A stretch of 64,000 nucleotides of DNA from Alloprevotella sp. (GTDB lineage Bacteria; Bacillota; Clostridia; Christensenellales; Aristaeellaceae), in the NCBI GenBank assembly GCA_963617205.1, contig CAVEOA010000002.1:22289-86288 (forward strand), written 5' to 3'. Positions 1,555 through 16,911 of the stretch are shown here, piece after piece. The position numbers were made by a program, and so were the translations under genes. How positions within the stretch are numbered: position 1 is the stretch's first letter; every line of letters begins with the position of its first letter. Under the pieces are notes generated by a model. That model was not told the DNA's origin. It searched no databases and saw only the letters and a list, made by a program, of their open reading frames with translations.

Positions 1555-2808
1555 TCAATCAACAGGGAACACGATGGCAAGGCGAACAATCGCATCCTCC
1601 TGCGAAAATTTCATTTTACCGTGATACTTGTCCACAACATAACGAATGCCTTTCATGCCGAAGCCATGGTTCATTTTGTCAGGCTTTGTCGTTTCCATCC
1701 TGTCGAAATCAACCGGATAATTGCAGTAATTCTCCGCATTCACCAGCACCATTTCGCCATTTTTGACGATGCGCAGGCTAATCATTCGGTTATCCTTCTC
1801 TTCTTCTTTCATTTCGCTCTCGATGGCATTGTCAAGGATGTTGTTGAGCAGCGAGAACACGTCCACCGCCTCCATGAACGCCATCTGCGCGCCATCGACA
1901 ATGTAGCTGAAGCGAATGGTATTGATCTCGCACATCAGCCCCTTTTCCATCAGAACGGCGTCAACGGTCGCGTTGCCTGTATTTGCCATGCTGGCGTATA
2001 TCTGCATCGTGCGCTTCAATCCGTCCAGCTTGTGGGATTCCTCGGCGCTCATGCTCTCCTGAACTGCGCGGATCTGGCTGCGGATGTTATGCAGCTTCAC
2101 GCCCATCATCTCCACAGCCTGCTTGGACAGCTCATGCTGCTCGTGTTGCTGGCTGATAATCAGCTCGAGCGTGCGCTTTTCCTCCTGCATCTTTTCCGCT
2201 GCGGAGATGCTGAACTGAATCATCAGGCAGCTGATGCACGCAAGCGCATCATACACGTTCATGTACAGTGCGTCCTTTCTGCACGTGTCGCGGAGGCTGC
2301 TCAGCACGATGCAGATAACAATCAGCACCGTCGAAATCAGCACCTGACGGCGGTCTGCCGTTTCATAGAATCGATCGTTCTTCCTGAGAATCAACAGGCA
2401 GATCAGGGCAGCCACAATCAGATGATAACCCACGGCAGAAAGCAGACTGTAATCCGGCGGAATGATAATAAACTGGTTTGCGATGCTGCGTACGGACGAA
2501 CCGATATGCTGGATGGCATAGCTGCCGACGGAAACGAACAGGATGCCCGACAGGCGAATTTTCCAGCAAACCGCCGCGGTGCCTGCCGCAAGCAGCCATA
2601 CAATCACCCAGTCCAGCACGCGCATAACCGGCAGAATCTGCCAAAGCTCCAGCTTCTGATAAAATATTGTCGCCGCACCGCTGATGACGATTGACGCCGC
2701 CAGCCTGCCAACAAAGCCGCGTCTGCGCGGCGCATGCTTTAAATACACAAATTCTCCGATGAGCAGCTGCACATATACGAGCAAAAACGGATGATTCATT
2801 GAAAACAT
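1555..2808 (-). CDS. Membrane sensor histidine kinase, AgrC/ComD-like GHKL type (partner of the LytTR regulator)
   Basis: The N-terminal half has about 6 hydrophobic segments. The C-terminal half has an ATPase region (NNILDNAIES, HGFGMKGIRYVVDKY). ATG at 2808 is preferred: gggggtg lies upstream and TGATG shares one nt with the regulator stop. The ORF-track GTG at 2817 is the alternative. Confidence 0.8.
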   Translation of the reverse strand: MFSMNHPFLLVYVQLLIGEFVYLKHAPRRRGFVGRLAASIVISGAATIFYQKLELWQILPVMRVLDWVIVWLLAAGTAAVCWKIRLSGILFVSVGSYAIQHIGSSVRSIANQFIIIPPDYSLLSAVGYHLIVAALICLLILRKNDRFYETADRRQVLISTVLIVICIVLSSLRDTCRKDALYMNVYDALACISCLMIQFSISAAEKMQEEKRTLELIISQQHEQHELSKQAVEMMGVKLHNIRSQIRAVQESMSAEESHKLDGLKRTMQIYASMANTGNATVDAVLMEKGLMCEINTIRFSYIVDGAQMAFMEAVDVFSLLNNILDNAIESEMKEEEKDNRMISLRIVKNGEMVLVNAENYCNYPVDFDRMETTKPDKMNHGFGMKGIRYVVDKYHGKMKFSQEDAIVRLAIVFPVD

Positions 2809-3515
2809 CAGCAGCACCCCCTGCTCAGATAATCAATATACTTGTCCATAAATTCCTTTTTTCGTCCGCGGCTGATTTGGATGATTTGGTCGCCGATGAA
2901 CAGCTCATTATCCACGACCTTGCGGACGTGCGAGAGGTTGATCAGCACGCCGGCATTGCACATGGCAAAGCACGAATGTCCGAATTTCTCCTGCGCCGAC
3001 CGCATGGTGGAGCGCTCGCGGTATGATTCCTTCTCCGTGTGGTACGCGACGTAATTCCGTTCGCTTTCCACATACAGGATTTTCTGAAACGGCAGGCGCA
3101 CGACGCTCGTTTCGTTATGCACCACAATTTCGCCCTGCTCACGCCGTGCACAGAAGGACAGCGCCTTCTTGAGCTTCTGGCAGAACACGGCATACGACAT
3201 CGGTTTAATGACATAATCAATCGCATTGACCTCATAGCCGTTGATGGCATATTGCGAATAGTTCGTCAGGAAAACAATGGATACCGTATTATCGAACTCG
3301 CGGATGCGCTTCGCCGTCGCGATGCCGTCCATCAGAGGCATTTCCACATCGAGAAACACCACATCGCCGTCACCGCCGTAGTCGCTGACAAAATGAATGC
3401 CGTCGTTCGATGCCAGCGTTTCGATATTCTCGCCGCTTTCCCGGGCATATCGGGCGATGTATCCCTGCAGCTGCTCCCTGCACTTTGCGTCATCATCGAC
3501 AATCCCGATTTTCAA
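2808..3515 (-). CDS. LytTR-family response regulator
   Basis: Receiver motifs (KIGIVDDD, VVFLDVEMPLMDG, IVFLTN) are followed by a LytTR DNA-binding domain (ILYVESERNYVAYHT). TTG at 3515 is preceded by gaggggaggg. The ORF-track ATG at 3557 is the alternative start. Confidence 0.85.
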   Translation of the reverse strand: MKIGIVDDDAKCREQLQGYIARYARESGENIETLASNDGIHFVSDYGGDGDVVFLDVEMPLMDGIATAKRIREFDNTVSIVFLTNYSQYAINGYEVNAIDYVIKPMSYAVFCQKLKKALSFCARREQGEIVVHNETSVVRLPFQKILYVESERNYVAYHTEKESYRERSTMRSAQEKFGHSCFAMCNAGVLINLSHVRKVVDNELFIGDQIIQISRGRKKEFMDKYIDYLSRGCC

Positions 3516-3756
3516 GCGTTTCCCTCCCCTCGAACCATCACATGCAAAATTCAGCAATCATTTCTATATTATTGCACATAATCTTGTAGAACTTTAGCAA
3601 TACTCTTTTCAACTATACCATGCTTTCCGGCGAAAAGCAAGCGGAATAGACACGACTGCCTCAGCGCGCCGCCGCAATCAATCAAACAGACCTGCGCTTT
3701 TGACTGCTGCATGCCTACTGATGAGGCGATGGAGCTGATGTTGTGCAGCCTGTCGG

Positions 3757-3831: not shown

Positions 3832-4269
3832 TTACTGGCAGGGATCCTCTATGCCTTCAATGCTTTCCAGCTCAAGCCGAATCAGCTGATAGCCATGATC
3901 CTCATAGATTCTCAGCACGCCGACCGCGCGCACATAGGCTTCCGCCTCCGGATAGACGGCGTCGTCTGTCAGCCAGACCACTTCCATCCCCTCGCGCATC
4001 AAGCCGTCATCGCAGCAGCTTTCATGCCAGTGGTAGACGTAATAGTAGCTGTCGCGCTCCAGCTCGGGCGCGTCGCCGACATAGAGATACCCTTCAATGA
4101 GCACCGTTTGCCCAAGAAGCGATATGTGTTTGGTGTAGAATTCCTCCAGACAGTCGTGAAAATCCTCACAGCCGGTAATGCAGAACGCGGGCTCCTCTGC
4201 CATGCAGACGCCTTCGCAGGCAAGCGCAGCCGCCAGCAGAAGAATCATCAGCCTGATGAAGCGCTTCAA
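3832..4269 (-). CDS. Small secreted Cys-rich protein, unknown family
   Basis: Signal peptide MKRFIRLMILLLAAALA. There are 8 Cys in 145 aa (CEGVC, FCITGC, HDC, HESCCDDG, DPCQ). The start overlaps the upstream stop by 4 nt. No family recognised. Confidence 0.65.
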   Translation of the reverse strand: MKRFIRLMILLLAAALACEGVCMAEEPAFCITGCEDFHDCLEEFYTKHISLLGQTVLIEGYLYVGDAPELERDSYYYVYHWHESCCDDGLMREGMEVVWLTDDAVYPEAEAYVRAVGVLRIYEDHGYQLIRLELESIEGIEDPCQ

Positions 4270-4790
4270 TTTCGATTCCTTCCTTCGTCAATGTACGGCG
4301 TCTGCCTGCCTTCTCCGGAAAGAAGAAGGGTCAGGAAGCTGTTCTTGATCTCCACTGAACCGCACAGATAGCTTTCGCCGATAATCAGCGTCGGAACAAG
4401 CTGACGTTCCTCGGGAATGCCCTTGCGTTCATAGTATGCCTGAATGATGGTGCCCTCGTCCGGATTCGATTTATTCAGCGCAACGAGCCTGATTTTGCTT
4501 TTGCTGCCATCCGCCAGCGTGATTTCCTCCGGCAGCCCGGCGATGATCATATCCGCGCGTTCCGAGCAATACCTGCAGGTCGGGCGATAGAAGTAGTAAA
4601 CCAGCGAATCGCCGGCATCGACGTCCGCATCAATGCCTGTATTGCTTTTGGGATGATAATCCTCCGTCTCCTCCTCGGCAGGGGCTGAACCCATGAAGGC
4701 ATTCAGTCCCTGCTCCGCAAATGCATTCGCCGTCAGGAGGAGCGCAAGCAGCATCACCAGCGCAATGCGCTTCCCTCGTCCCATCGTCAT
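4266..4790 (-). CDS. Secreted thioredoxin-fold protein with CxxC motif (thiol-disulfide oxidoreductase-like)
   Basis: Signal peptide RIALVMLLALLLTANAFA. CxxC sits in YYFYRPTCRYCSE and a cis-Pro-like VPTLIIG follows. ATG 4790 overlaps the upstream TGA (ATGA at 4787-4790). The ORF-track start at 4865 would overlap the upstream CDS. Confidence 0.7.
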   Translation of the reverse strand: MTMGRGKRIALVMLLALLLTANAFAEQGLNAFMGSAPAEEETEDYHPKSNTGIDADVDAGDSLVYYFYRPTCRYCSERADMIIAGLPEEITLADGSKSKIRLVALNKSNPDEGTIIQAYYERKGIPEERQLVPTLIIGESYLCGSVEIKNSFLTLLLSGEGRQTPYIDEGRNRN

Positions 4791-6406
4791 TGCACCCGAT
4801 AGCGGTACAGCACGCGTGTCTGCACCTGACTTCCTTCGAGCGGCGTGTCCTGCCAGGCAGACCAATCGCCGTTGACCGTACGCGTTTCAACCTGTCTCGT
4901 ATCGCTTTGGCCAATCCAGTTCGTCGACCAATCGCTCCAAGAACCCCAGCCCTGATAGATATACTGCGTTGTCTTCGTGCGGGAACGGTACATGGTCACC
5001 TGAGTGGTCTCCGTCTTCGTGGAGGATTTTTCATTATACCATGATGAGCCGTCCGGCGCCTTATACCAATAGCAGCCGCCTTTTGTCCCCACTCCTGTAT
5101 ATCTGGTCGTGGAGCTTCTGTATTTCCAGCCGATTACACTCGTCACCACAGAAGGTGACTGCGTCGTCACATCGATGCAGCTGTAATAGAGCATGCCGGG
5201 ATAGTCGCGATGATAGTATTCCCAGCGGGAATAGTTCCAAACCGTCACTTCCTTCTCAACGTTCTGTGTGGTCGTTTCAACCTCCAGCGTAGCAGAACCG
5301 TAAATCGGCGTTTCAGAATAACCAGACCACTCGCCGTACACTACTTGCGCGTACCAGCCGCTGCCGGTCTGGGTTTCCGCGCTCGTCTTGGTGACAAAAT
5401 CACGGTAGCGATACTCGGTGGTTGCGGTTCTGTTGCGGTACTGCGTCTTTATGTCCACAATCGTCACGCCATTCGGCACGGTTTCCACCCAGTCCGAATA
5501 TACGACAGGCTTCGGGGTCGGCGTTGCCGTAATCACAGGCTTCGGGGTCGGCGTTGCCGTAATCACAGGCTTCGGGGTCGGCGTTGCCGTAATCACAGGT
5601 GTCGGCGTTGCCGTAATCACAGGCTTCGCCGTGACCTTCGGCACGTAATAAACGGTCGGCTTCGGGGTTGCCGTCGGTTCAGGCGTTGGTGTAATCAAAC
5701 TATCGGCATATTCCTTTGTAACAATATCGTACATTACCTTTGCCGGCTCATATTCGCCCTTAATCTGTGCAAGAAGCCTAGCCGCATCCTCTAAATTACC
5801 CTCTCCATAGGCTTTCAGCGCATCGACATAAACATCTTCATTGCTCGCAGCAGGTTGCCGGCCAATCATTAAAGACGTCATTCTTTCACGCGCATCATGG
5901 AAATCGAAGCACCTGAGATACAGCTCCGTTGCCAAGTCGATGTCTTTGTTGGCCTCCGCTTTTCGTCCATTGATATAGTCTCTGATTGTCGATACGGGAA
6001 CGATGCTGATCTCTCCGTCATCGATATTGCAATTTTCTTTCATGTATGCGACAAGTCCGTCTTCCTTTGCCTCGAGGTAATTGACGAACTGCTTTTGCAG
6101 CTCCATCGCCCTTACATACATTTCAGCGGTTTCAAGATCATCCTTTTCAATAATATACTGTACGGCTGTGGAATACATGATCAGATAAGAGCTGTATCCC
6201 TTGTTTCCACACATTTTAAAATCCGCAATGATATTATTGATATCCAGCCCTGAGTTCTTGGGATTGCTCATGTAGAGATTCAGATTCTTGATGGTCGTCG
6301 CATAGTTGTTTTCCATTGTTGTCTCCGCAGAAATCGCCACCGCAGAAACGTTCAGGCAGCAAAGCAGGGTCACCGCCGCAAGCAGCACCGACAATATACG
6401 TTTCAT
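4787..6406 (-). CDS. Secreted protein: helical TPR-like N-domain, Pro/Thr-rich repeat linker, W/Y/T-rich beta C-domain
   Basis: Signal peptide MKRILSVLLAAVTLLCCLNVSAVA. The linker is PVITATPTPK repeated about 4 times. The C-terminal half has recurring YRYR and WSxW motifs (EYRYRDF, WGSWSDWSTNW, GDWSAWQDTP, LYRYRVQ). No family name recognised. Confidence 0.7.
   Translation of the reverse strand: MKRILSVLLAAVTLLCCLNVSAVAISAETTMENNYATTIKNLNLYMSNPKNSGLDINNIIADFKMCGNKGYSSYLIMYSTAVQYIIEKDDLETAEMYVRAMELQKQFVNYLEAKEDGLVAYMKENCNIDDGEISIVPVSTIRDYINGRKAEANKDIDLATELYLRCFDFHDARERMTSLMIGRQPAASNEDVYVDALKAYGEGNLEDAARLLAQIKGEYEPAKVMYDIVTKEYADSLITPTPEPTATPKPTVYYVPKVTAKPVITATPTPVITATPTPKPVITATPTPKPVITATPTPKPVVYSDWVETVPNGVTIVDIKTQYRNRTATTEYRYRDFVTKTSAETQTGSGWYAQVVYGEWSGYSETPIYGSATLEVETTTQNVEKEVTVWNYSRWEYYHRDYPGMLYYSCIDVTTQSPSVVTSVIGWKYRSSTTRYTGVGTKGGCYWYKAPDGSSWYNEKSSTKTETTQVTMYRSRTKTTQYIYQGWGSWSDWSTNWIGQSDTRQVETRTVNGDWSAWQDTPLEGSQVQTRVLYRYRVQ
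5505..5630. repeat. In-frame 30-bp tandem repeat (3 identical copies, one 24-bp variant, one partial copy)
   Basis: The unit acaggcttcggggtcggcgttgccgtaatc occurs at 5505, 5535 and 5565 with 100 percent identity. Copy 4 at 5595 lacks 6 bp. The array encodes the PKPVITATPT linker of the 4787-6406 protein. Confidence 0.95.
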
Positions 6407-6444
6407 CCTATCTTCTCCTTTTCCTGCCGGACATGACGCCGGCT

Positions 6445-8076
6445 TTATTGAATGGTTCCGTTCATGTTGAACAGCAGTCCCTTGGAAGAGTAAACCCGAA
6501 GCTCGTAGTTTTGTCCGCTCACCAGGCTTTCCTTTGCCTGATTCAGCACCTCATCCAGCCGCACGAAGAGCAGATTCTGCCCGAAAATGCCACAGCCGCC
6601 GTCTTTCGCCGTCATCGTGACGATAGCTGTCTTTGTTCCGCACAGGATTGCCACCTTGCAGCTATCGATGGGCTCCGGAAATCCGTTGGCGGCAGACAAA
6701 TGGAGATACACGCCCTGTCCGTTGCCTTGCAGCTGCGCGACCGGCAGATTGCTGCCAGAGAGCATCCGCGTCAGCAAAGATTCCTGCATCAGCTTTTCAT
6801 GCTGGTCCGCGCCGTCATAGCCGCAATCCTTTGGATACCAGAAGAGCAGCCCTGTCATCTGTCCGTAATCCGTCGGGTCCTTTTCGAGCGTCAGCATGGC
6901 GGTTGAAGCCGCCTGTACGGTTTGATGCTGGTGAATCACACCGACAGCCGCCGCTGCAACGAGGACAACGACCATGACGATGGTGAGCAGCGTCCTTCTT
7001 TTCTTCCGTTTTTCCTCTTCGTTTTGCCTTCGCACGATTTCGTCCAGGTCATCGGTGATGCTGGCGTTCCGAGCCGCTGCCTGTGCATCCTCTGTCGCAG
7101 GCGGCTCTATCCTTTGTTCCGGCTGTTCGGGAATGACGCTCTCATCCTCATCCGGCCTATTCACCTTGCCTGCAAGCGAATCCGTCTGCGTTTCCGTTAC
7201 GCTCTCCCTTTGCTGATAGCGCCATTCTGGCGACGGATTTGCCTGTATTTTCTCTAATTCCTCAATAACCTCCCTGATGTTTTCCGGCCTGTCCTCCGGA
7301 TCTTCCGCCGTCATCTGCGCAGCAAACCGCCGCAGCGAGCTGCTCGTACCGTCCTGCTGCCCTTCAAGCAGCCGCTGAATCGTGCGTCCAAGGGCGTAGA
7401 TGTCTGTTTTCGGGCTCATCGTCCCGGAACGTCTCTCCGGCGCCTCGTAATCAGGCGTACCGCCCTGCCGCTGTCCATCTGTTTCCACCAGAAACGCTGA
7501 TACGCCGAAATCGCCGAGCTTGTAGATATGATCCCGCAGCCAGAAGATATTATCCGGCTTCACATCGCCGTGGATAATGGGCTTCGGCTGATGATAATGG
7601 CAGGTCTCCAGCGCCTTCGCGACGCACAGCGCAATCTGGATAATCCTGTCCTCGTTCATCGGCGTATCGGAAAGCACATTCTTGAGCGGCGTCAGCTTTT
7701 CCTCGCGGATCATCAGCATTGCGCCGGGTCTTCCCTCTGCCTTCACCTCTTCAAAGTCAAGGCAGTTCAGGATGTACGCCTCGCCCTGCAGCTGCTGCAT
7801 GATTCTGATTTCATCGCGGCACTGGGCAACCATTCTTTTGTATTTCTGCTCGATCGCGTCCGCCGTCAGACCGATGCTCTTCAGGTACTTCACATCATCC
7901 GTCTCGGGCATGACACAGATGACCTTGAGCGCCGATACGGTTTTTCCCGTCTCCGTTTCTCTTGCAATCTGGTAGACGACGCTCTTTCTTCCGCTTCCCA
8001 GAATGCTCTCAATCTGCCACGTCCGCAGCATTTCGGATTGCATCACGCACGCTCTGATCTGTGTCTCTTCCATCAT
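6445..8076 (-). CDS. Hanks-type Ser/Thr protein kinase, single-pass membrane protein with about 160-aa extracytoplasmic domain
   Basis: All catalytic motifs are present: G-loop LGSGRKSVVY, Lys in VSALKV, catalytic loop IIHGDVKPDNIF, LGDFGVS, GTPDYEAPE and DPEDRP. A TM segment LLTIVMVVVLVAAAAVGVI follows a charged linker. ATG 8076 overlaps the upstream stop (ATGA). Confidence 0.85.
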   Translation of the reverse strand: MMEETQIRACVMQSEMLRTWQIESILGSGRKSVVYQIARETETGKTVSALKVICVMPETDDVKYLKSIGLTADAIEQKYKRMVAQCRDEIRIMQQLQGEAYILNCLDFEEVKAEGRPGAMLMIREEKLTPLKNVLSDTPMNEDRIIQIALCVAKALETCHYHQPKPIIHGDVKPDNIFWLRDHIYKLGDFGVSAFLVETDGQRQGGTPDYEAPERRSGTMSPKTDIYALGRTIQRLLEGQQDGTSSSLRRFAAQMTAEDPEDRPENIREVIEELEKIQANPSPEWRYQQRESVTETQTDSLAGKVNRPDEDESVIPEQPEQRIEPPATEDAQAAARNASITDDLDEIVRRQNEEEKRKKRRTLLTIVMVVVLVAAAAVGVIHQHQTVQAASTAMLTLEKDPTDYGQMTGLLFWYPKDCGYDGADQHEKLMQESLLTRMLSGSNLPVAQLQGNGQGVYLHLSAANGFPEPIDSCKVAILCGTKTAIVTMTAKDGGCGIFGQNLLFVRLDEVLNQAKESLVSGQNYELRVYSSKGLLFNMNGTIQ

Positions 8077-9467
8077 TTCGTCACTCCTGAAGCCGAGAAG
8101 ATGATTTCACCGTCCAGCAGCAGCTCAACGCACCAGTCAGCCCCTGCCGGAATGCCTTGCAGCTGATCGAACAGGTCGGCCAGATAAATGGTCATCATCG
8201 TATCCGCGTTCGTGCCCGGCAGGAACCTGACCTGATCCATCGGCCATTGACCGGCAATCCGCGCCGTACCGCAGCCTTCCACGTGAAGATAGATTGCAGC
8301 CTCCTTGCCGTCAAATGCCTCGCGATTGATTTTTCCAACTGCCTTGACAATTTCCAGATAGTATCCGTACTCTGCCAGATTTTCCTCGGAAATATCAACC
8401 GCAAAATCGTTGACTCTCTGCGCCGAGCCGGCGTTGAACAGCGTCACCGCGGGAGAGCTGCCCTTGCTGCTGCCGCGGTCAATTTCGCTGACTGCCCTGC
8501 TGTAGCTCGTCTTCCTGACGCGGAACATGCGCACATTGACCGCTTCCTCTGCGCCGATGTACGTTTCGTTCGTGTCTGCCCTGTCCACGGAGATGGCGTT
8601 GCACTCGCTCTGCGCCAGCTGCCTTGCATCGTACACGCGAATGTAATACGTGCTTCCCTGCCACAAGCCGCTGACGGAAAACGACACGTCCGCATCCGTT
8701 GTCTGAACGCTGTAGAGCGCGCAGCCATTTTCGTCAGGCGTCCATGCAACTGTTTCGCCCTTTGTAACTTCCACCGCATCTCCGCTTACATCCGGCGCTT
8801 CCGCGAAGGTGCTGACCGTGATGCGGTAATCATTGATGTGCTGCTGATTCTCCCACGCAATTTCGATGGATGACCCATCGCCGCTCTGTTTTTTCGCCGT
8901 AAAGCTCAGGACAACCGACTGCAGGGCAGCGGCAGCCTTGTCCAGTTCCTTCTGTTCCTTCTGAAGCTTCCACAGCACATCCAGCTGCTCCGACGCCATG
9001 CCGGACAGGATGGTGTACTCCCGTGCTTCCTTCAAGTCGTTTTCGGCGTTCGTCAGGTCGCCTGATGCAAGCGCCTCGCTGCCCTGCACGTACTTGATGT
9101 AGTAGACAATGTCGGGGAATTTGCTTGACGAGCAGCGCTGAAAATGCTCCGCCGCATCCGCGTACTCCTCATCCCAGAAGCACAGCCACCCCTGCGCATA
9201 ATGATAGTATTCCGCCGCATCCTTGTAGCTGCCGTACACATTTTCCGCGTAGTTCGCAACCACGTTTGAGAAGGATTTGCGCGCCTGCACCATGTTGCCT
9301 GCGGCTTCATAGGTCTTTCCGCGATTGTACTCGGCGTACATGGCCTCAAGCTTTGATGCCAGCGAATAATCATCGACGCCCGCTGCCGTTTCAGCCATGC
9401 CTGTCGAACATGCACACAGCACCAATACAATCAGCAAGAACCACGCAATCGCATTTTTCCGTTTCAT
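8073..9467 (-). CDS. Putative lipoprotein with TPR-like helical N-half and FN3/Ig-like beta-rich C-half
   Basis: Signal with a probable lipobox, LIVLVLCACSTG. The helical region has Y/A-rich TPR-like repeats (AAEYYHYAQGW, AAEHFQRC). An FN3-like stretch follows (SIEIAWEN...YRITVS...STYYIRVYD). Confidence 0.65.
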   Translation of the reverse strand: MKRKNAIAWFLLIVLVLCACSTGMAETAAGVDDYSLASKLEAMYAEYNRGKTYEAAGNMVQARKSFSNVVANYAENVYGSYKDAAEYYHYAQGWLCFWDEEYADAAEHFQRCSSSKFPDIVYYIKYVQGSEALASGDLTNAENDLKEAREYTILSGMASEQLDVLWKLQKEQKELDKAAAALQSVVLSFTAKKQSGDGSSIEIAWENQQHINDYRITVSTFAEAPDVSGDAVEVTKGETVAWTPDENGCALYSVQTTDADVSFSVSGLWQGSTYYIRVYDARQLAQSECNAISVDRADTNETYIGAEEAVNVRMFRVRKTSYSRAVSEIDRGSSKGSSPAVTLFNAGSAQRVNDFAVDISEENLAEYGYYLEIVKAVGKINREAFDGKEAAIYLHVEGCGTARIAGQWPMDQVRFLPGTNADTMMTIYLADLFDQLQGIPAGADWCVELLLDGEIIFSASGVTK

Positions 9468-9508
9468 TGCCCATAGCCTCCGTCATGAATTGATGGTGTG
9501 TGCCTGCC

Positions 9509-9841
9509 TTAATCCAGCTCGTTGCTCTCTTCCGGCTTGCTTTCCGTCGGCTTTTCCGTCAGCATCTTCTGCTGTGCAGCGAGCACAAACTGGCTGGTCA
9601 CCGAGAATGTCCTGCCTTCCGGTCCCGTGTAACCCTTGAATAGGACCTCGCTGATGTTCTCCGTGTCAAACGGGCGAACCGTTTCGTCATCCTTTTCGCC
9701 CAGCGGATAGAACACGCCGACGTAATCAAAGCAATGCTCCTGAATTTTCAGGCCGTAGCCAACCACAGCGAAGCAATACTTCTTGTTCTCCTCAAGGCGC
9801 ACAATGCTCCCGATGGGAAGCATGTTTTCAGCTGTCAGCAC
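9509..9841 (-). CDS. DUF4176-family protein (T7SSb-associated accessory protein), copy 2
   Basis: Family-typical N-terminus LPIGSIVRLEENKK...DYVGVFYPLGE...ISEVLFKGY. It has a long tail ending ESNELD. Confidence 0.75.
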   Translation of the reverse strand: MLTAENMLPIGSIVRLEENKKYCFAVVGYGLKIQEHCFDYVGVFYPLGEKDDETVRPFDTENISEVLFKGYTGPEGRTFSVTSQFVLAAQQKMLTEKPTESKPEESNELD

Positions 9842-9859
9842 GAATTTTGACCTCCCCTA

Positions 9860-10648
9860 TCAATAACCAAAGATGGTGGTTTTAACGCCATTTGCAACAT
9901 AGTTAAAGCCTTTTCCGACCCATCCGCCGACTGTCCCGCCAGCCTGAGTTACCCAGGTGGTTGCGCTGTCCGGGATGATGTCGATTCCAAAGCCGTTCAA
10001 AACCGCATCAACCGTACCGATTACAGATCCTGCAGCGCTTGAACCGATACCAGTGCCAAGCGTTTCTGAGAGCGTCGTCTTGCCGCTGCGGTAATCTCCG
10101 ACAGCTTCGTTACGAACGCTCGCTATCGCATCGTCGGCATGCGTGTAAGAATGCGCCATATTTCCCGCGTTGCTGAGCATTGGAATTCCTGTAACGTCAG
10201 CTGCAATCACGCCTCCGGCACCAAACGCCGCCTCAAGCACGTCATTCGTGGTACCATTTGCAATGGCGTCAATCAGTTCGGACGCATAGCCGCCTGTGAC
10301 CACATCCAGAAGCGCCGTGACCGCCCCTGCTACGCCGCCATCCTGAAACGCTTCAATCACCTTCACGGCGGAGTCGTAAATTTCCTTTACCTTCAGCAGC
10401 TTATCCAGATACTTCGACAGCTTTTCAAACTTCTCAAAAATCGCCTTGACCGTGGCGCTGATTTTGCCCAGAACGGTTCCGCTCGTACTGCTTGCAAGGT
10501 CGCCGCCTGCTTCCGGATGCAGCTTCAGATAGCTCTCCGAGTTCTGTGCGCTTGTGAGTGCGTCCTTCGTGGTGTTCTTTGCACTTGTCGTCTGGTCAAT
10601 CAACGTCTGCAATGCTTGCGCATTATAGTCGGTTGTTACCGCCGTCAT
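9860..10648 (-). CDS. Putative T7SS substrate/effector: helical N-domain plus Gly/Ala/Ser-rich glycine-zipper C-domain
   Basis: 262 aa with no signal peptide. The helical N-terminal part is about 110 aa. The C-terminal part has GTGIGSSAAGSVIG and GGTVGGWVGKG (GxxxGxxxG). It lies directly after three small helical genes, as in LXG-type effector modules. Confidence 0.55.
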   Translation of the reverse strand: MTAVTTDYNAQALQTLIDQTTSAKNTTKDALTSAQNSESYLKLHPEAGGDLASSTSGTVLGKISATVKAIFEKFEKLSKYLDKLLKVKEIYDSAVKVIEAFQDGGVAGAVTALLDVVTGGYASELIDAIANGTTNDVLEAAFGAGGVIAADVTGIPMLSNAGNMAHSYTHADDAIASVRNEAVGDYRSGKTTLSETLGTGIGSSAAGSVIGTVDAVLNGFGIDIIPDSATTWVTQAGGTVGGWVGKGFNYVANGVKTTIFGY

Positions 10649-10671
10649 GTTCCCGCTCCTCCTGTTCTCTC

Positions 10672-10941
10672 TTAATCAAGCGTGTTCAAACGCCTTTCCG
10701 AAATCTGCTTCTCATTGTCGATGTTTTTCAGCAGCGTCTGCAGCTTCTGCAATGCCTTTTCAACCGCGTCGCTCTTCTCCGTGCACGCCTTATAGAGGTT
10801 TTGCGTATTGGCGCTCGCAATGCCCTGCTTCAAAAAGGCAAGCGCCTGCGAAAGATTGCCAATCTGCGTCTGCATGCTCGTCACAATCGACTGGCTGTTG
10901 TTTACCGCCGTCTCAAAGGCCGACAAATCAACATATGCCAT
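10672..10941 (-). CDS. Small alpha-helical T7SS-associated protein (Lap/WXG100-superfamily-like), 89 aa
   Basis: Helix-turn-helix-sized, no Trp, ends RRLNTLD. An SD-bearing 23-nt gap precedes the downstream gene. Confidence 0.55.
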   Translation of the reverse strand: MAYVDLSAFETAVNNSQSIVTSMQTQIGNLSQALAFLKQGIASANTQNLYKACTEKSDAVEKALQKLQTLLKNIDNEKQISERRLNTLD

Positions 10942-10965
10942 GGTTTTTCTCCTCCTTTTTCTCTC

Positions 10966-11268
10966 TTAAGACCCTTTAAGCACCTTCATTGCGTCCGTTT
11001 CCTTTTTGCTGAGTTCTCCGGAAAGCGTTCCGACCGCCGTTGCATACGCCTTCACCGCATCCGCAAGGCTCTGAATCTGCTCGCTGAGCTGCATGTTGTT
11101 GCTGGCGATGAAGTCCGACTTGTACTTGCTGTCCCAGGTGCTCAGCATCGCGTCAAGCTCCGTCTTAAGCTTCGCGCCGTTCTTCTTCAAGGCGTCCGAA
11201 ACGTCGTTCAGCGTGGTCAGCGCCTTGCTTACCTGCTGGCTGTCATACGAGTAGTTGGTATTTGCCAT
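10966..11268 (-). CDS. WXG100-like protein (EsxA-like, W-x-S variant), 100 aa
   Basis: The central motif LSTWDSKYKSDF aligns with the W-x-G...F pattern of EsxA-type proteins, with G replaced by S. ATG 11268 with gagaggggg upstream is preferred over the ORF-track GTG at 11274. Confidence 0.6.
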   Translation of the reverse strand: MANTNYSYDSQQVSKALTTLNDVSDALKKNGAKLKTELDAMLSTWDSKYKSDFIASNNMQLSEQIQSLADAVKAYATAVGTLSGELSKKETDAMKVLKGS

Positions 11269-11288
11269 ATGCACACGCCCCCTCTCTT

Positions 11289-11531
11289 TTATCCAAGCGC
11301 CTTAATCTTCTTCGTGATGGTTCCGCTTGCCGACTTCGCGCTGTTCTCCGCCTCATTCGCGTCCTTGATGCTGTCATCCAGAATTTTCTGAAGCTCATTA
11401 ACCGCCATGACGCCAATGGTCGACGTGTTCACGCTGGACAGCGCCTTGGAAGCCTCCTGCATCTTCAGTTCCATGTCTTCCAGATAGCGCTTTGCCGATG
11501 CCATGTCCGCGCTGTTATACTTGTCGCTCAT
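11289..11531 (-). CDS. Small alpha-helical T7SS-associated protein (Lap-like), 80 aa
   Basis: All-helical composition with no Trp or Cys. An N-terminal YNSAD (YxxxD pattern) is present. It is tightly packed, 12-14 nt from its neighbours. Confidence 0.5.
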   Translation of the reverse strand: MSDKYNSADMASAKRYLEDMELKMQEASKALSSVNTSTIGVMAVNELQKILDDSIKDANEAENSAKSASGTITKKIKALG

Positions 11532-11543
11532 CCTGCTTCCTCC

Positions 11544-11861
11544 TTAGTCAAGCTCGTTCGATTCGTGCATCTTCGGGGCAAATTCGCCCGCTGCGGCTCT
11601 GCGCTCCGCATCAGCCATCGCCTTCGTCATCCCCTGCTGAAACTCGGGGTACTTCTCGTACTGGTAGCCGTTGAACACCACCTGTTCGATGGCTTCCTCG
11701 TCAAAGAGGACGATGGGCATATCACCCAATCCCAGCGGATACGGAACAGAAGCGTACTTCCGGATGTTTCCGGCTGCTCCCACACGCAGATACCCCGTAA
11801 CCATGCGCTTCTCGCGATGATCCTTGATTGTCACAACGCTCCCGATTGGCAGAAACTCCAT
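11544..11861 (-). CDS. DUF4176-family protein, copy 1
   Basis: MEFLPIGSVVTIKDHREKRMV...VPYPLGL...IEQVVFNGYQ. The tail ends HESNELD. Confidence 0.75.
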   Translation of the reverse strand: MEFLPIGSVVTIKDHREKRMVTGYLRVGAAGNIRKYASVPYPLGLGDMPIVLFDEEAIEQVVFNGYQYEKYPEFQQGMTKAMADAERRAAAGEFAPKMHESNELD

Positions 11862-11880
11862 ACAGACCTCCTTATATTTT

Positions 11881-12123
11881 TCAGCACAGCATGAGTACTG
11901 AGCCGTTTTTCACATTCAGGCTGCGCACCGACTCGTTCAGGTCGAGCACCGCATGTCTCTGATTGTCGCAAAGCACGCAGGTCACCAAATCAATGTACGG
12001 CTGCGCATTCATCTGCTTAACGATGTCGGCAAGCATATCCCGGAAGGGCACATCCGCCGGCAGCGTAAACGTTTCGCATTGACCCGTGCCCGGCACCACA
12101 ATATGGGCAAGAATATGTTCCAT
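11881..12123 (-). CDS. esaB: EsaB/YukD-like ubiquitin-fold T7SS protein
   Basis: 80 aa, immediately downstream of essC (6-nt gap). A beta-grasp-like sequence is present (ILAHIVVPGTGQCETFTLPADVPFRDMLADI...NGSVLML). Confidence 0.7.
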   Translation of the reverse strand: MEHILAHIVVPGTGQCETFTLPADVPFRDMLADIVKQMNAQPYIDLVTCVLCDNQRHAVLDLNESVRSLNVKNGSVLMLC

Positions 12124-12129
12124 TCAGCT

Positions 12130-15100
12130 TCACTCCTTCGGCAGATAAACCTTGATGGGGAAACGGTTTTCCGGAATGACGAAGCCTTCGCCGGGCTTCA
12201 TGTATTCATTCGTCCGGTCATACGTCAGCGAGCAGTTCCACGGGTCAAAGCTGGACAGCGTATTGCCCGTTGTGATGATGTGGCAGTTCTGCGCAAACGC
12301 CCTGACCGAATCCGGCAGTGAATTTGCATTGATCTGCGTGGAAATCAGAACGCGGATGCTGTACTTGCTTCCGAGGCGCACTGCGGTCAGAAGCTGCTTC
12401 GACAGCTGCTGGTCCACCTTTTCCCCGTCAAACCACCGGTCCACGTCATCCAGCACAATGCACAGCGGCTTCATGGTGCCTGCAATCGCGCGCCAGTTGT
12501 TTTCGTCCTCCCAGCCTGAAACGGCGCGCTGCGCACGCTTTTGCTCGCCGAAGCGGTCGTCCATATCGGACGTAAAGCCGCGCTGCCGGTCAACCGGCGT
12601 ATTGCTTGACAGGAAGGCTACATGACCGTTGACGCCCTTCCACCTTGCCTGGTCGGCTTCGCTGGCAATCACGAAAATATCTCCGTCATCCCCTGCGCAA
12701 AGCTTCGCCAGCGACATCAGCAGCGACGTCTTGCCGGTTTCGCGTTTGCCTGCAACAAGCACCGTCGGCTTTTCGTAGAAGTCCAGGAAAACAGGCTTCA
12801 GCGATTCATGCCGGAATGCGACCGGCACCTCTGCCTTTTTCTCCTTCACGCCATACGCGGCAAGCACCTGCGCACCAAATTCTGCCGGAACACGCGGCAT
12901 TTTGAGCACCGGCGCACTGCACGGCGGAAGGGCTTCACCGTATTCATGCAGCTTTTCCGCACGCTTCCGATCCTCTGCCAAGCCAAACGCAAGCCCCGTC
13001 TGAAATTCGAGACAGCCCTGCTTGCTGTTCATCACGCCGCGACCGGGCAGATCTGCCGGAATCGCCTGTATGCTGCTCGTGCGGACATTCAGCGCATCCG
13101 CATATTCCGACGCACTGCCCATGCCGAGCGGAATGACCTGCATCGCCTCCAGCAGCCGCCGGTTGATTTCGCCCATAGCATTCGCCGTCACGATGAAATA
13201 GATGCCGCGTCCCGAGGCCGTTTTAATCAGGTTTTCCACCTTTTCCTGCTCGTTGTCGTTCAGCAGCTCATACCATTGCGCAAAGCGATCCACCGCCACA
13301 ATCAGCGCAGGCATAACAGGCTCGCCGTCCTCCTCGCATGCGCGGTTGTAGCTTGCAAAGCTGTCCGTCTTTTTCTCCGCGAATGTCGCGTCGCGTGCGG
13401 TCATCAGCTCCTCCAGCCGATAATATGCGGCACGCTCCTCACGGCTTTCCCACTTGGTCAGCACATCGCAGACGTTGGGAATTGTCTCAATGGACTTCAG
13501 CGCCGTGCCCGAGAAGCTGAGCACCATCATTTGCACCTGCGCCGGCGAATAGCGTCGGCTGACTGCATAGGCGAGCGTCTGCAGGAACATCGTCTTGCCG
13601 CTCTGGCTGTGCCCGATAATCGCCATGTTCCGCAGCGCAGACACATTCAGCGATGCCGTCAGATACCGCTGATTCGCCACATCATCCAGCATACCGATGA
13701 CGGCGCTGATGCCGTCCTCCGTGTTTTCCTCCGCCGATGGCAGCGCAGTCAGGTCAATCACATTCGGCAACTCCGGCAGCCACAGCTTTCCAGCTCCCTG
13801 ATAGCCATACGTTTCTGCCGTCCTGTTGATTTCATCCAACACGGCGCTCATCTGGCTCTTTGCTTTTTTCGTTGGTGCATTTGCCGCAGCAACCATCTTT
13901 TTCCTGCGCCCGAGCGAATCCATCAATGCAGGCTTTGCGGCGGGATCCCCCTGCTCCGGCTCATAGGCGGCGCCGCAATACGCCGTCTGAATCTGTTCAA
14001 ACAGCTCATCATTGCCCACCTGTACGAAGCCGCGTCCGTTTCCCTTGATGAACGCCGCATCCGGTCGGTGCAGCATATCGTTCGAGTCCTCGCGTGTCCG
14101 CACCTGCAGGCAGATATGGAAGCGGCTGTTGCTCCAGATTTCAGGACCCACCTTGTTTGACGGGCGCTGCGTTGCCAGCAGAAGATGCAAGCCGACCGAG
14201 CGTCCCACGCGTGCCGTGCTGATCAGCTCGCTCATGAAATCCGGCAGCTCGTCCATCAGCTCCGAGAACTCGTCAATCACAATCAGGATATGGGACAGCT
14301 TCCTGCTGTCCGCAAGCGGATTCACATAGCGAATGTACGCATCGATATTATCGACATCGTACCTTTTGAATAATCTCTCGCGCCGTTTCACCTCGCCGCG
14401 AAGCGAATACAGCGCCCGGTTGATGCTCCGCTTTCCCTGCAGGTTGTCTACAAAGCCGATGCAGTGCGGCATGTTTCTGAAGTTGTTGAAGGTGCCGCCG
14501 CCCTTGTAGTCAATCAGAATAAACTGCATCTGCTCCGGCGAATAGTTCAGCGCGAGCGAAAGCAGCAGCGTCTGCAGCAGCACGCTCTTGCCCGAGCCGG
14601 TTGTACCCGCCATGATGCCGTGCGGTCCATGCTGCTTGTCCGACAGGTCAAGCGGGAAAATGCGCTCGCCAGCCATCTTTCCCAGATAGGCGATGATGTC
14701 CCTGCTCGTGCTGTTCTGCTCCCACCGAAGGCGGATTCCCAGCTGCTCTGTCTCGCGAACGCCATACATCTCCAGGAATGTCACGCGATCCGGAATTTTC
14801 CGATTGCCGATTAAACCCGTTTCGCGGCAGCCGTTGAGCGTATCGATGGTTTGCCAGAATTGACTCTCCTCGCAGGATTCCGGCGTCACGCTCTGCGTTG
14901 TTTTCTCTGCGTAATTGTAGAGCTTTTTCTCCCGCGCATTGTATACAACCTTGCATTCCTTGGGAAGCTCCTCTTCCTTTTCCGCGCAAACGCAAATCGA
15001 AAAGCCGGCGTTCGAGGCAATGATGTTGGAAAACAGCACATGCCGCCACAGATAGGTGCTGTCCTCGAAAATGACGATGTAGTGCGGCAGCATGGCGCTC

Positions 15101-16647
15101 TTTTCGTTGTCCTTTTCCAGCCGGAGCATCAGCACATCGTTGAGCTGCGACAGGATTTCCATCGCATCCGCGTAATTGTCCGAAATCAGCTGACCCTCGC
15201 TGCCGTCATACAGCTGCATGTGCGGCAGCGCACGCAGGAAACGCCACTTCTCGCCGTTGCCCGGCTTTGCGATGAGGGCAATCCGCACATCCTCGGGCGC
15301 ATGCATGACGGACAGCTGTAAAATCAGCGTTTCAATCAGCGAAGATGCTTCCTCTGAGACGATGCCGAACAGCTTGTCATTGAGCAAATCAACCGTAATC
15401 GGCGCATCGTGCAGCATACTGAATTTTTCCTGCAGGCGGTACGGCGCATTCTTTTCGTCCTCAGGCACCTCGCCCATCTTCAATTTCGGCACGGAAATGC
15501 TGTACGGCAGCCTGACCTGTCCTCTCCCTATGCGTATTTTGAGAAACGTCTCGCTGTTCGGCGTTCTTTCCCATACGGCGGAGCTCAACTGCGCCGCATC
15601 GCTGCAGCATTGCTGCCATGCCGGATAATATTTTTCCAGCGTGTCCAGAATCTCCTCAACGCCCTTGTTGATTTCCTTTTCTGTTCGCCCAAGGCGCTTG
15701 ATATAATCCGCCATCGCTTCCTTGAACTGCTTTTTTCTCATGTGCCTGCTGTAGCAATAGTTCATCAGCGACCAGCCGACCGCCAGCACAGAGGAGGACA
15801 CCATCATCACCGTGCCATAGCCGCGATAGCTCGACCCGCTCAGCATGCTGCCCAGCAGCATCGGCAAGCTCATCGTCAGCGCCGGACCCATGCTCAGAAG
15901 AAGTGGCTGCGTCCTGTTTTCCTCAAGCACCGGCGTCGCTTCAATCTCGTACTTTTTCTCTTCTATTTTCGGCATGAAGCGCGGCGGTCGGGCGATATCC
16001 CGATACAGGGGAGCCGCCTTCGCCCGGAACGTCACGATATGCGGTATGCTCGCTGCCTGCAACGCAACGTGTCCGCCGCCGATGCCGCTGACGCCAATCA
16101 CGTTGCCGCCAAGATACACAATCTGCAATCCGCTTGCGAAGGCAATCAAATCGCCCGTGCGGATTTCCTTTTCTTCATTGCGGATGAACCATCCATTGAT
16201 AAACGAACCGTTCTTGGATGTATCGGCATAGCTTGCATGGTCTCCTGACACCTTCAGGACGCCATGATGATTAGAGAGGCGCTTGTCCGGCGAGCAAACG
16301 CCGCAGTCCTCATGACGTCCGATTTGCAGCGTCTCTCCGGTCAGGACATACTTGCCGAACCGGACGTCCTCCTGCAAAATTTCGGAGCAGTAAATGCCGA
16401 TTATCGCGTCCTCATGCTTCAGAATCAGGCTCATCTCATGATGCAGACACCGTTCCCGTGTATCCTCGCCGTCATTCCATGTCATTTCCTCAGGCTTGAC
16501 CGCGTACCACTGATGATCCATGGCAACAAACGTCACCTGATATTTCTCATAGGACGGCGCTGCCGCAGTGATGGCGTCCTTCTCGACGTCCGGCAGACAG
16601 AATATTTTTCCTCGTCCCCTGCTGTACATAACGATTCGTAGCATCAT
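12130..16647 (-). CDS. essC: EssC/YukB-type FtsK-SpoIIIE T7SS ATPase with N-terminal FHA domains
   Basis: 1505 aa. FHA-like region LQIGRHEDCGV...NHHGVLKV...DTSKNGSFINGW. Two TM segments are present. There are three P-loops: GTTGSGKSVLLQT, GHSQSGKTMFLQT and GKRETGKTSLLMS. Confidence 0.9.
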   Translation of the reverse strand: MMLRIVMYSRGRGKIFCLPDVEKDAITAAAPSYEKYQVTFVAMDHQWYAVKPEEMTWNDGEDTRERCLHHEMSLILKHEDAIIGIYCSEILQEDVRFGKYVLTGETLQIGRHEDCGVCSPDKRLSNHHGVLKVSGDHASYADTSKNGSFINGWFIRNEEKEIRTGDLIAFASGLQIVYLGGNVIGVSGIGGGHVALQAASIPHIVTFRAKAAPLYRDIARPPRFMPKIEEKKYEIEATPVLEENRTQPLLLSMGPALTMSLPMLLGSMLSGSSYRGYGTVMMVSSSVLAVGWSLMNYCYSRHMRKKQFKEAMADYIKRLGRTEKEINKGVEEILDTLEKYYPAWQQCCSDAAQLSSAVWERTPNSETFLKIRIGRGQVRLPYSISVPKLKMGEVPEDEKNAPYRLQEKFSMLHDAPITVDLLNDKLFGIVSEEASSLIETLILQLSVMHAPEDVRIALIAKPGNGEKWRFLRALPHMQLYDGSEGQLISDNYADAMEILSQLNDVLMLRLEKDNEKSAMLPHYIVIFEDSTYLWRHVLFSNIIASNAGFSICVCAEKEEELPKECKVVYNAREKKLYNYAEKTTQSVTPESCEESQFWQTIDTLNGCRETGLIGNRKIPDRVTFLEMYGVRETEQLGIRLRWEQNSTSRDIIAYLGKMAGERIFPLDLSDKQHGPHGIMAGTTGSGKSVLLQTLLLSLALNYSPEQMQFILIDYKGGGTFNNFRNMPHCIGFVDNLQGKRSINRALYSLRGEVKRRERLFKRYDVDNIDAYIRYVNPLADSRKLSHILIVIDEFSELMDELPDFMSELISTARVGRSVGLHLLLATQRPSNKVGPEIWSNSRFHICLQVRTREDSNDMLHRPDAAFIKGNGRGFVQVGNDELFEQIQTAYCGAAYEPEQGDPAAKPALMDSLGRRKKMVAAANAPTKKAKSQMSAVLDEINRTAETYGYQGAGKLWLPELPNVIDLTALPSAEENTEDGISAVIGMLDDVANQRYLTASLNVSALRNMAIIGHSQSGKTMFLQTLAYAVSRRYSPAQVQMMVLSFSGTALKSIETIPNVCDVLTKWESREERAAYYRLEELMTARDATFAEKKTDSFASYNRACEEDGEPVMPALIVAVDRFAQWYELLNDNEQEKVENLIKTASGRGIYFIVTANAMGEINRRLLEAMQVIPLGMGSASEYADALNVRTSSIQAIPADLPGRGVMNSKQGCLEFQTGLAFGLAEDRKRAEKLHEYGEALPPCSAPVLKMPRVPAEFGAQVLAAYGVKEKKAEVPVAFRHESLKPVFLDFYEKPTVLVAGKRETGKTSLLMSLAKLCAGDDGDIFVIASEADQARWKGVNGHVAFLSSNTPVDRQRGFTSDMDDRFGEQKRAQRAVSGWEDENNWRAIAGTMKPLCIVLDDVDRWFDGEKVDQQLSKQLLTAVRLGSKYSIRVLISTQINANSLPDSVRAFAQNCHIITTGNTLSSFDPWNCSLTYDRTNEYMKPGEGFVIPENRFPIKVYLPKE

Positions 16648-16736
16648 CTTTCATTCCTCTGTCAGTATCGTTCAGGTAAATGTGCAAATTCATGGTTGCT
16701 ATAACAAATGATGGGTGTAATGAATTGTGTTTTTTA

Positions 16737-16795
16737 TGCCGGATGCGATTGCAGAAATTGAAAATTTGCCGGATGTAAGAGATTTCTGCAATCGC
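16737..16795. promoter_or_regulatory. Perfect 14-bp inverted repeat interleaved with a 9-bp direct repeat in the essC upstream region
   Basis: GCGATTGCAGAAAT (16745-16758) and ATTTCTGCAATCGC (16782-16795) are separated by 23 nt. TGCCGGATG occurs at 16737 and 16767, 30 bp apart. The element lies 98-150 nt upstream of the essC start codon. Confidence 0.5.
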
Positions 16796-16911
16796 CAGAC
16801 CGGCACAAAAAAGCTTTTTGCCGCCGCAGATGGCGCAAGAGGCACATTCAGCGGCAATGCCGAATTATACGGTGTTGCCCTGTATAGAATCCCGATGATT
16901 CTGAAATCCCA

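Follow-up and report, generated by a model that had tools for sequence, protein, structure and literature searches.

We analyzed a 64,000-nucleotide stretch of DNA (contig CAVEOA010000002.1, positions 22,289 to 86,288; referred to here as the window) from an uncultured bacterium assigned to the Aristaeellaceae (Clostridia). A gene at window positions 9860 to 10648 (minus strand) encodes a 262-amino-acid (aa) protein of an unannotated family, which we call FAM262, and lies within the core operon of a system for type VII secretion (T7SS). We propose that FAM262 is the signature exported substrate (i.e., the effector) of a rare, self-contained, kinase-carrying T7SS cassette without EssB, a proposal that, taken as a whole, has about an even chance of being correct. 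It is probable that FAM262 is exported by the T7SS and that its hairpin is a modular targeting unit; that it is an antibacterial toxin is put forward tentatively. We found a well-defined gene, a rare family, conserved synteny, a modular N-domain, a fast-evolving C-domain, and no known immunity families, and we infer export, partner binding, chaperoning, and, more cautiously, toxicity.

T7SS effectors in the Bacillota are recognized almost wholly through the LXG domain, and FAM262 has the operon grammar of an effector without it. That grammar (i.e., small helical partners, an effector, and a DUF4176 protein) is already known. What is new is an unannotated candidate effector family whose targeting hairpin is short and not of the LXG type, whose gene keeps one position within the core operon of a kinase-type T7SS without EssB, and which evolves faster than its cassette neighbors. 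The family would escape every effector survey based on hidden Markov models (HMMs). If export is real, FAM262 would represent a new family of targeting domains, and the cassette would offer a compact system with a single evident cargo for the study of substrate recognition by a kinase/FHA-gated, EssB-less T7SS, as well as a test case for the tolerance of a putative membrane-active effector without a known immunity family. An earlier reading of the window (the original prediction) had proposed a candidate glycine-zipper T7SS effector. It overlooked two points: a distinct T7SS variant has FAM262 as a constant, characteristic component, and no gene of that variant evolves faster.

Rarity and conserved synteny of FAM262

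The open reading frame predicted at 9860 to 10648 is real: an AGGAGG sequence 8 nucleotides (nt) 5' of the ATG provides a strong ribosome-binding site, and the surrounding minus-strand operon is tightly packed, with intergenic gaps of −4 to 41 nt. For the window protein and all 15 family members, Pfam and NCBIfam gave only noise, and nothing relevant to FAM262 came up when a profile was run against all PDB chains (best E = 0.005, RadA). A word-indexed search of 5.8 billion proteins recovered four relatives, and a search with the N-domain only recovered the same four close relatives and no others. When 1.84 billion cluster representatives were searched exhaustively with a profile, 14 FAM262 representatives (244 to 331 aa) emerged. 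The gene is single copy in its own genome (2.59 Mb; 94% complete), and of 37 genomes searched from the genus, 2 carry it. Among 400 genomes of the class there were only four marginal matches (E of at least 8e-5). Two of these (L009 and L010) were rejected as relatives, being GLUG-repeat/coiled-coil surface proteins of about 1000 aa; the remaining class-level matches (L011 and L012; E of at least 5e-4) were not inspected.

The operon, of 13 genes, reads, in order, FHA-EssC, YukD, DUF4176, a trio of helical proteins (80, 102, and 89 aa), FAM262, a second DUF4176, a TPR lipoprotein, a Ser/Thr kinase, and three exported proteins (539, 174, and 145 aa). As originally predicted, three small helical genes (11289 to 11531, 10966 to 11274, and 10672 to 10941 for the 80-, 102-, and 89-aa proteins, respectively; minus strand) precede FAM262, and a DUF4176 gene and a lipoprotein gene come next. 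The former (110 aa; 9509 to 9841, minus strand; Pfam PF13780, E = 7.5e-17) starts 18 nt after the FAM262 stop codon, and the latter (8073 to 9467, minus strand) encodes a probable TPR lipoprotein of 464 aa with a signal/lipobox-like N terminus and TPR matches. In every relative that we looked up and that had enough flanking sequence, FAM262 occupied the same slot, with the order EssC(FHA)-YukD-DUF4176-~80-~98-~89-FAM262-DUF4176-(optional extra gene)-TPR lipoprotein-transmembrane (TM) kinase, and this slot was constant at identities of 80, 76, 43, 31, 29, 24, and 20%. The synteny with EssC, YukD, and DUF4176, together with the modular N-domain described below and the adjacent small DUF4176 gene, makes T7SS cargo the best reading of FAM262, as the original prediction had it.

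In the 94%-complete genome, we detected no YukC/EssB, no LXG domain, and, outside the cassette, no strong WXG100 protein, and the only two DUF4176 genes are both in the cassette. Because the genome holds no other LXG/DUF4176 module, the cassette is self-contained, with FAM262 as the one cargo in evidence. Across 200 genomes of the class, we likewise found no LXG domain, and no Spo0A was found in the genome carrying the window.

In its components, the cassette resembles T7SSc, T7SSd, T7SSe, and T7SSj (Garrett, Higginson and Palmer 2024, PMC11217815), with which it shares an FHA-bearing TsxC, a YukD-like TsxB, a WXG100 TsxA, and a single-pass membrane Ser/Thr kinase (TsxD) instead of EssB. Candidate substrates of those systems are flanked by small WXG100-related, Lap-like genes (PMC11217815). 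Unlike them, the cassette is without a PPM phosphatase (TsxF), a DUF6382-FHA protein (TsxJ), and a large Ig-like TsxI, and it has two DUF4176 genes, the TPR lipoprotein, and FAM262 as specific components. The text of that study contains nothing like FAM262 or the exact component set of the cassette. According to PMC12699871, the essC variants of Staphylococcus aureus each have one characteristic substrate in the core locus.

N-terminal hairpin, candidate partners, and probable chaperone

A helical N-domain of about 110 aa had been predicted, and AlphaFold2 (AF2) modeled residues 1 to 104 (10337 to 10648, minus strand) as a two-helix hairpin (residues 10 to 43 and 59 to 104; predicted local distance difference test score [pLDDT], about 70). 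Our alignment of 15 FAM262 sequences has invariant residues A47-G48-G49-x-L51 and G189; T58, G146, E195, D214, and N218 are near invariant. The invariant AGG lies at the predicted turn of the hairpin, where it may be the counterpart of a WxG/LxG motif, which it matches in position but with Ala instead of Leu/Trp. At about 100 to 120 aa, the hairpin is about half the length of the LXG domain (about 200 aa). We propose that it serves as an export/targeting module.

The hairpin is reused. Two proteins, P0018 (207 aa; L013:2312-2935) and P0019 (300 aa; L020:9848-10750; loci L020 to L022), share only their first ~96 to 120 residues with FAM262 (hhalign probabilities of 99% and 98%, respectively). 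Between the two, the N-domains have 40% identity, and the C termini show no relationship, either to each other or to FAM262. Both genes sit 3' of the downstream DUF4176 gene, have no counterpart in the window, and likely encode extra cargoes that use the same helical partners. The C termini of both are acidic and Pro rich and have no family match. Because the same hairpin occurs on unrelated C termini, it looks like an LXG-like export module, even though no LXG HMM picks it up; given its predicted hairpin fold, it may be a distant structural relative of WXG100 proteins. Through P0018 and P0019, the family thus combines a conserved N-domain with differing C-terminal domains, as polymorphic toxins do; the C-domain in the primary slot is constant. 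In a further protein, P0014 (L027:1024-1902), an in-frame fusion joins the FAM262 N-domain (residues 1 to 145) to the ~150 C-terminal residues of the TPR-lipoprotein family (E = 3e-28). The locus is without the effector C-half, the gene for DUF4176, and the greater part of the lipoprotein. Found on one 2.5-kb contig, P0014 may be a natural deletion or an assembly chimera.

PE/PPE-type T7SSa substrates (e.g., PE_PGRS) likewise have an N-terminal hairpin export domain of about 100 residues, a Gly/Ala-rich C terminus, and small helical partners that are cosecreted. We detected no relationship in sequence between these substrates and FAM262, which is without repeats of the PGRS type and whose system is a different one at the phylum level.

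The three small helical genes were found 5' of FAM262 in all loci. The 102-aa protein is WXG100-like (weak match, E = 0.0058) and is the EsxA/TsxA equivalent: W47, within a W-x-G column, is invariant, and the ortholog in L013 passes the Pfam cutoff (30.7 bits). The 80-aa protein, a candidate Lap-like partner, has an N-terminal [YF]-x-x-x-[DE]-M motif in five of five aligned orthologs (YNSAD-M in the window) and weakly matches the FAM262 N-domain (hhalign probability, 59%; E = 9e-5). Similar export motifs (YxxxD/E and FxxxD) occur in T7SS substrates and Lap1 factors, FxxxD being the one carried by Lap1 targeting factors. The 89-aa protein, the other candidate Lap-like partner, has an invariant N-terminal V-D-L..F, and every ortholog terminates in L-x-x-L-D/E (the window copy in LNTLD). 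The two DUF4176 proteins of the window end in ESNELD, and these acidic Leu-Asp/Glu tails of the 89-aa and DUF4176 proteins may be a common docking signal.

On our proposal, the N-terminal ~100 to 120 residues would fold as a WXG/LXG-like helical hairpin with the A-G-G-x-L turn and would form, together with the small helical proteins encoded next to it, a rod-shaped bundle recognized by the FHA-EssC ATPase. The 80-aa ([YF]xxx[DE]) and 89-aa proteins would be the hairpin partners, and the 102-aa protein would act as the WXG100/EsxA equivalent. The downstream DUF4176 protein, which is directly 3' of FAM262 in relatives and is the likely cognate chaperone, would keep the Gly/Ala-rich amphipathic middle and the C-terminal helices soluble in the producer and would be stripped off at export. 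Outside the cell, the acidic, Gly/Ala-rich C-domain would act on the envelope of a neighboring cell, where its likeliest activity may be that of an antagonistic, membrane- or envelope-directed toxin.

The chaperone assignment draws on characterized systems. Small DUF4176 proteins stabilize T7SS toxins, including the membrane-depolarizing TelD, and have been proposed to bind membrane-inserting helices, and large DUF4176 (Ltc) chaperones bind disordered amphipathic helices (PMC12478183). TelD of Streptococcus intermedius GC1825 (PDB 9DCS; PMC12478183) is, like FAM262, a T7SS substrate with amphipathic/hydrophobic helices and a small (70 to 130 aa) DUF4176 protein, on which its stability and export depend. 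FAM262 may be a DUF4176 client: a DUF4176 gene was adjacent in all loci, and residues 105 to 158 are amphipathic, Gly/Ala rich, and modeled with pLDDT scores below 50. By analogy to the disordered amphipathic helices bound by Ltc chaperones (PMC12478183), residues 105 to 155 (10184 to 10336, minus strand) are the candidate DUF4176-binding site, and they are also the most strongly constrained part of FAM262.

The operon of TelE in Streptococcus gallolyticus UCN34 encodes LapE1, LapE2, the DUF4176 protein LcpE, TelE, a six-TM (6-TM) protein, and two DUF5085 proteins including TipE (PMC10434224; bioRxiv 10.64898/2026.03.12.711312). TelE requires its DUF4176 protein, which stabilizes the middle and C-terminal regions of TelE. 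FAM262 has in common with TelE the small helical partners upstream, an adjacent DUF4176 gene, an N-terminal helical domain, a Gly-rich C terminus, and linkage to a T7SS. TelE, however, has 514 aa and a 195-aa LXG domain detectable with Pfam, whereas FAM262 has 262 aa and a hairpin that escapes the LXG HMM. TelE also has a defined zipper at residues 458 to 480 that is required for toxicity, whereas the zipper count of FAM262 is at chance. Unlike the TelE operon, the cassette has no DUF5085 or 6-TM partner and carries its DUF4176 gene downstream of the effector gene. Finally, FAM262 lies inside the core secretion operon and TelE in a satellite operon.

Evolution, composition, and the nature of the proposed cargo

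FAM262 is the fastest-evolving gene of the cassette. It is 75.6% identical to its counterpart in the nearest independent relative (L003), compared with 87 to 95% for its neighbors, and 42.8% identical to that in L014, compared with 53 to 79% for other cassette genes. The rate of nonsynonymous substitution (dN) was 0.154 for FAM262 and 0.02 to 0.07 for most neighbors; between L001 and L003, the values were 0.102 for FAM262 and 0.008 to 0.037 for the neighbors. Whole-gene ratios of nonsynonymous to synonymous rates (dN/dS; Nei-Gojobori), estimated from three lineages, were 0.40 for FAM262, 0.10 for EssC, 0.08 for YukD, and 0.09 to 0.16 for DUF4176. The sole other cassette gene as divergent encodes the 539-aa secreted protein (74% and 53% identity; dN, 0.14); its dN/dS was 0.2 to 0.6 throughout, with dS of up to 1.5 around residues 126 to 216.

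The fast evolution of FAM262 is concentrated near its cargo end. For residues 61 to 150, dN/dS was 0.08 to 0.21, and for residues 151 to 240 it was 0.62, 0.90, and 1.64 across the three lineage pairs. The ratio of nonsynonymous to synonymous differences (Nd/Sd) was 5.7 to 8.9 times higher in residues 151 to 240 than in residues 61 to 150 (Fisher's exact test, P = 1e-5, 5e-4, and 1e-3). The C-domain (residues 156 to 262; 9860 to 10183, minus strand) has predicted helices at residues 156 to 187, 193 to 219, and 227 to 260, and its conserved motifs are Y/W-x-x-G189-E/K...E195 (GEIGxGE-like), D214, N218, and a G-I-D-I-P-D-S block (residues 221 to 228). Since G189, E195, D214, N218, and GIDIPDS are kept, residues 151 to 240 are not simply unconstrained; most likely, fixed positions are mixed with diversifying ones. 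This rate pattern fits an exposed surface that evolves antagonistically.

These rates bear on whether FAM262 leaves the cell at all. As an intracellular part of the machinery or its regulation (e.g., a scaffold joining EssC, the kinase, and the DUF4176 proteins), FAM262 would never be exported. Its fixed place in the core operon would suit such a role, as would the absence of a signal peptide or TM segment from the protein. The role is nonetheless very improbable, given that the core EssC, YukD, and DUF4176 genes have dN/dS values of about 0.1 and FAM262 evolves fastest, that its N-domain is modular and reused on unrelated C termini, and that the gene layout is like that of Lap-Lap-effector-chaperone operons.

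The C-half was predicted to be rich in Gly, Ala, Ser, Thr, and Val, and the composition of residues 104 to 262 agrees (17.6% G, 14.5% A, 10.7% V, 10.7% T, and 6.3% S). The two Gly-rich strings cited as zipper repeats correspond to residues 198 to 211 and 237 to 247 (GGTVGGWVGKG). No internal repeat or duplication was detected between the middle and C-terminal Gly-rich helices (hhalign probability, ≤2%). The predicted GxxxG signature did not stand out from this composition: the window protein has six GxxxG motifs, compared with 4.5 expected (P = 0.29). Zipper triplets were enriched at P < 0.01 in only 1 of the 15 members, and none occurred in two of them (P0011 and P0012). The real feature of the C-half is a Gly/Ala-rich composition, not a conserved zipper.

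The original prediction of a classical glycine-zipper toxin, which would depolarize membranes in the manner of TelE, EsxX, and TspA, has become improbable, and pore formation by FAM262 would be an analogy rather than a finding. On that explanation, the helices at residues 193 to 219 and 227 to 260 would insert as an oligomeric hairpin channel, with unconventional immunity conferred by, for example, the TPR lipoprotein or another exported protein of the cassette. The window protein does have three (G/A/S)xxxGxxxG triplets and two long predicted helices with the short conserved GIDIPDS loop between them, and small DUF4176 genes accompany membrane-depolarizing toxins. The maximum 19-residue Kyte-Doolittle scores of the family members (1.08 to 1.58) did not reach the cutoff of 1.6. 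We rejected this low hydropathy as a case against membrane insertion, since the TM helices of EssC itself score only 1.32 to 1.42 on the same scale; hydropathy alone is thus no bar to insertion, and the best windows of FAM262 (1.0 to 1.47) fall within the EssC range. The points that tell against a zipper channel are the chance-level triplet counts, the conserved acidic or polar residues E195, D214, and N218 within a putative membrane helix, the net charge of −10 or lower in all members, the absence of DUF443, DUF5085, or a membrane immunity protein, and the lack of sequence similarity to any solved chain.

Several observations weigh against our proposal of an exported, toxic effector. Regarding the targeting module, no member of the 15-sequence family matched the LXG (PF04740) or WXG100 (PF06013) HMM at E ≤ 5, so that the likeness to LXG-type toxins seen in the original prediction is not borne out by sequence, and the domain has half the LXG length. 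The FAM262 N-domain and the 80- and 89-aa proteins matched no LXG, WXG100, or Lap HMM above the cutoff, and comparison of the N-domain with the WXG100 family of the cassette gave an hhalign probability of only 7.5%. The AF2 model of FAM262 has low confidence: a 5-sequence alignment gave a pLDDT of 35, 15 diverse sequences gave a mean of 58, and a Foldseek search of this weak model against the PDB found no match at E ≤ 0.001. Regarding the cargo, the C-domain belongs to one family across all cassettes and is not swapped like a typical polymorphic toxin domain, and dN/dS values near 1 are also compatible with partly relaxed constraint and do not prove positive selection. The C-half has a net charge of −10 (window protein) to −31 in all members, each best hydrophobic window of FAM262 holds one to three charged residues (acidic ones included), and shuffling the C-half of the window protein gave an expectation of 2.4 zipper triplets, close to the three present (P = 0.42). 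Regarding immunity, we found no gene for a polytopic membrane protein from 3832 to 19818 (apart from EssC, there are only signal/anchor segments), and neither DUF443 nor DUF5085 was found in the 94%-complete genome.

The main rival explanation, which we regard as rather unlikely, is that FAM262 is a nontoxic conserved substrate or accessory protein, which, with a structural or adaptor role, would be exported or sit at the machine's tip. It could be, for instance, a surface-exposed cap, a filament, an adhesin, or a cosecreted carrier for optional second cargoes that share its N-domain, and its fast evolution would stem from exposure to phage or host immunity and not from an arms race with immunity proteins. 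A nontoxic role best explains the constant C-domain (one family in the same slot of every cassette), the missing immunity gene of any known kind, and the acidity of a weakly hydrophobic C-half with no conserved zipper. It also agrees with the retention of FAM262 in loci with extra N-domain proteins and with the availability of the TPR lipoprotein, the 539-aa secreted protein, and a CxxC protein as assembly partners. On the other hand, the experimentally studied T7SSb substrates that depend on Lap or DUF4176 proteins are all toxins, dN/dS values of 0.6 to 1.6 limited to a stretch of about 90 residues resemble effector-type diversification, and FAM262 has no repeat or anchoring motif for surface retention.

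Known glycine-zipper toxins are guarded by DUF5085 and/or integral-membrane proteins. TelD and the S. aureus protein TspA (PMC12744356) are LXG proteins guarded by DUF443 integral-membrane immunity proteins, and EsxX, also of S. aureus (PMC12744356), is guarded by DUF5085 proteins (ExiAB) together with the membrane proteins ExiCD; the genome of FAM262 differs in having neither family. The absence of a small polytopic membrane immunity protein had been pointed out in the original prediction, and it holds. The downstream genes in every locus were those for DUF4176, the TPR lipoprotein, and the kinase, with no variable small gene. Nearby, only the TPR lipoprotein is a candidate for immunity or partnership outside the cytoplasm, and it would be the most accessible immunity candidate if FAM262 is a toxin that acts on the outer face of the membrane. 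Because it evolves slowly (dN, 0.044), it gives no signal of coevolution with FAM262, and sliding-window dN/dS analysis of the neighbors for a coevolving immunity candidate found no window with dN/dS near 1 at high dN.

A broader reading, which seems unlikely, is that the A-G-G hairpin defines an unrecognized family of T7SS export domains, with the function of LXG but out of reach of its HMM, and that the cassette is a self-contained, kinase-gated variant whose one universal cargo, acidic and quick to diversify, needs no classical immunity gene. The cargo would then be either a nontoxic surface or tip factor or a toxin neutralized by the conserved TPR lipoprotein, and either outcome would place a T7SS outside the usual toxin/immunity logic.

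Other cassette genes and possible linked regulators

The remaining core genes are also on the minus strand. The FHA-bearing, EssC-type FtsK/SpoIIIE ATPase is encoded at 12130 to 16647 (Pfam matches on orthologs), the YukD/EsaB-like ubiquitin-fold protein at 11881 to 12123 (PF08817, E = 4e-7), and the first small DUF4176 protein (105 aa; E = 3.6e-17) at 11544 to 11861. Downstream of the TPR lipoprotein gene, whose position is kept in relatives, is the gene for the single-pass membrane Ser/Thr kinase (543 aa; 6445 to 8076; Pfam Pkinase, E = 3e-25; TM segment at residues 363 to 381), which is likewise kept. The 539-aa exported protein (4787 to 6406) is a further cassette gene and, with the TPR lipoprotein and the CxxC protein, belongs to a conserved extracytoplasmic set.

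Some loci deviate in their gene calls or labels. At L001:6744-8389, the kinase gene was called as two pieces (433 and 114 aa), and at L015:574-5087, EssC was present as two separate proteins, one with FHA (233 aa) and one with the ATPase (1243 aa). Such splits could be natural variants or could stem from frameshifts or sequencing errors. A cassette copy with 76% identity (L008; CAVIHU010000014.1) is labeled "Bacteroidaceae bacterium," a group in which EssC, YukD, and DUF4176 are unexpected, and this label is probably a binning or taxonomy error.

Adjoining the cassette is a gene pair encoding a LytTR response regulator and a GHKL (HATPase_c_5) histidine kinase (1555 to 3557, minus strand). Judged from the sequences of the open reading frames, it is orthologous to pairs at L003:16840-18800 and L024:261-3627, the latter locus being distant (EssC, 38% identical). 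The pair may be a linked regulator of the cassette, besides the STAND/TPR protein encoded at 16912 to 19818.

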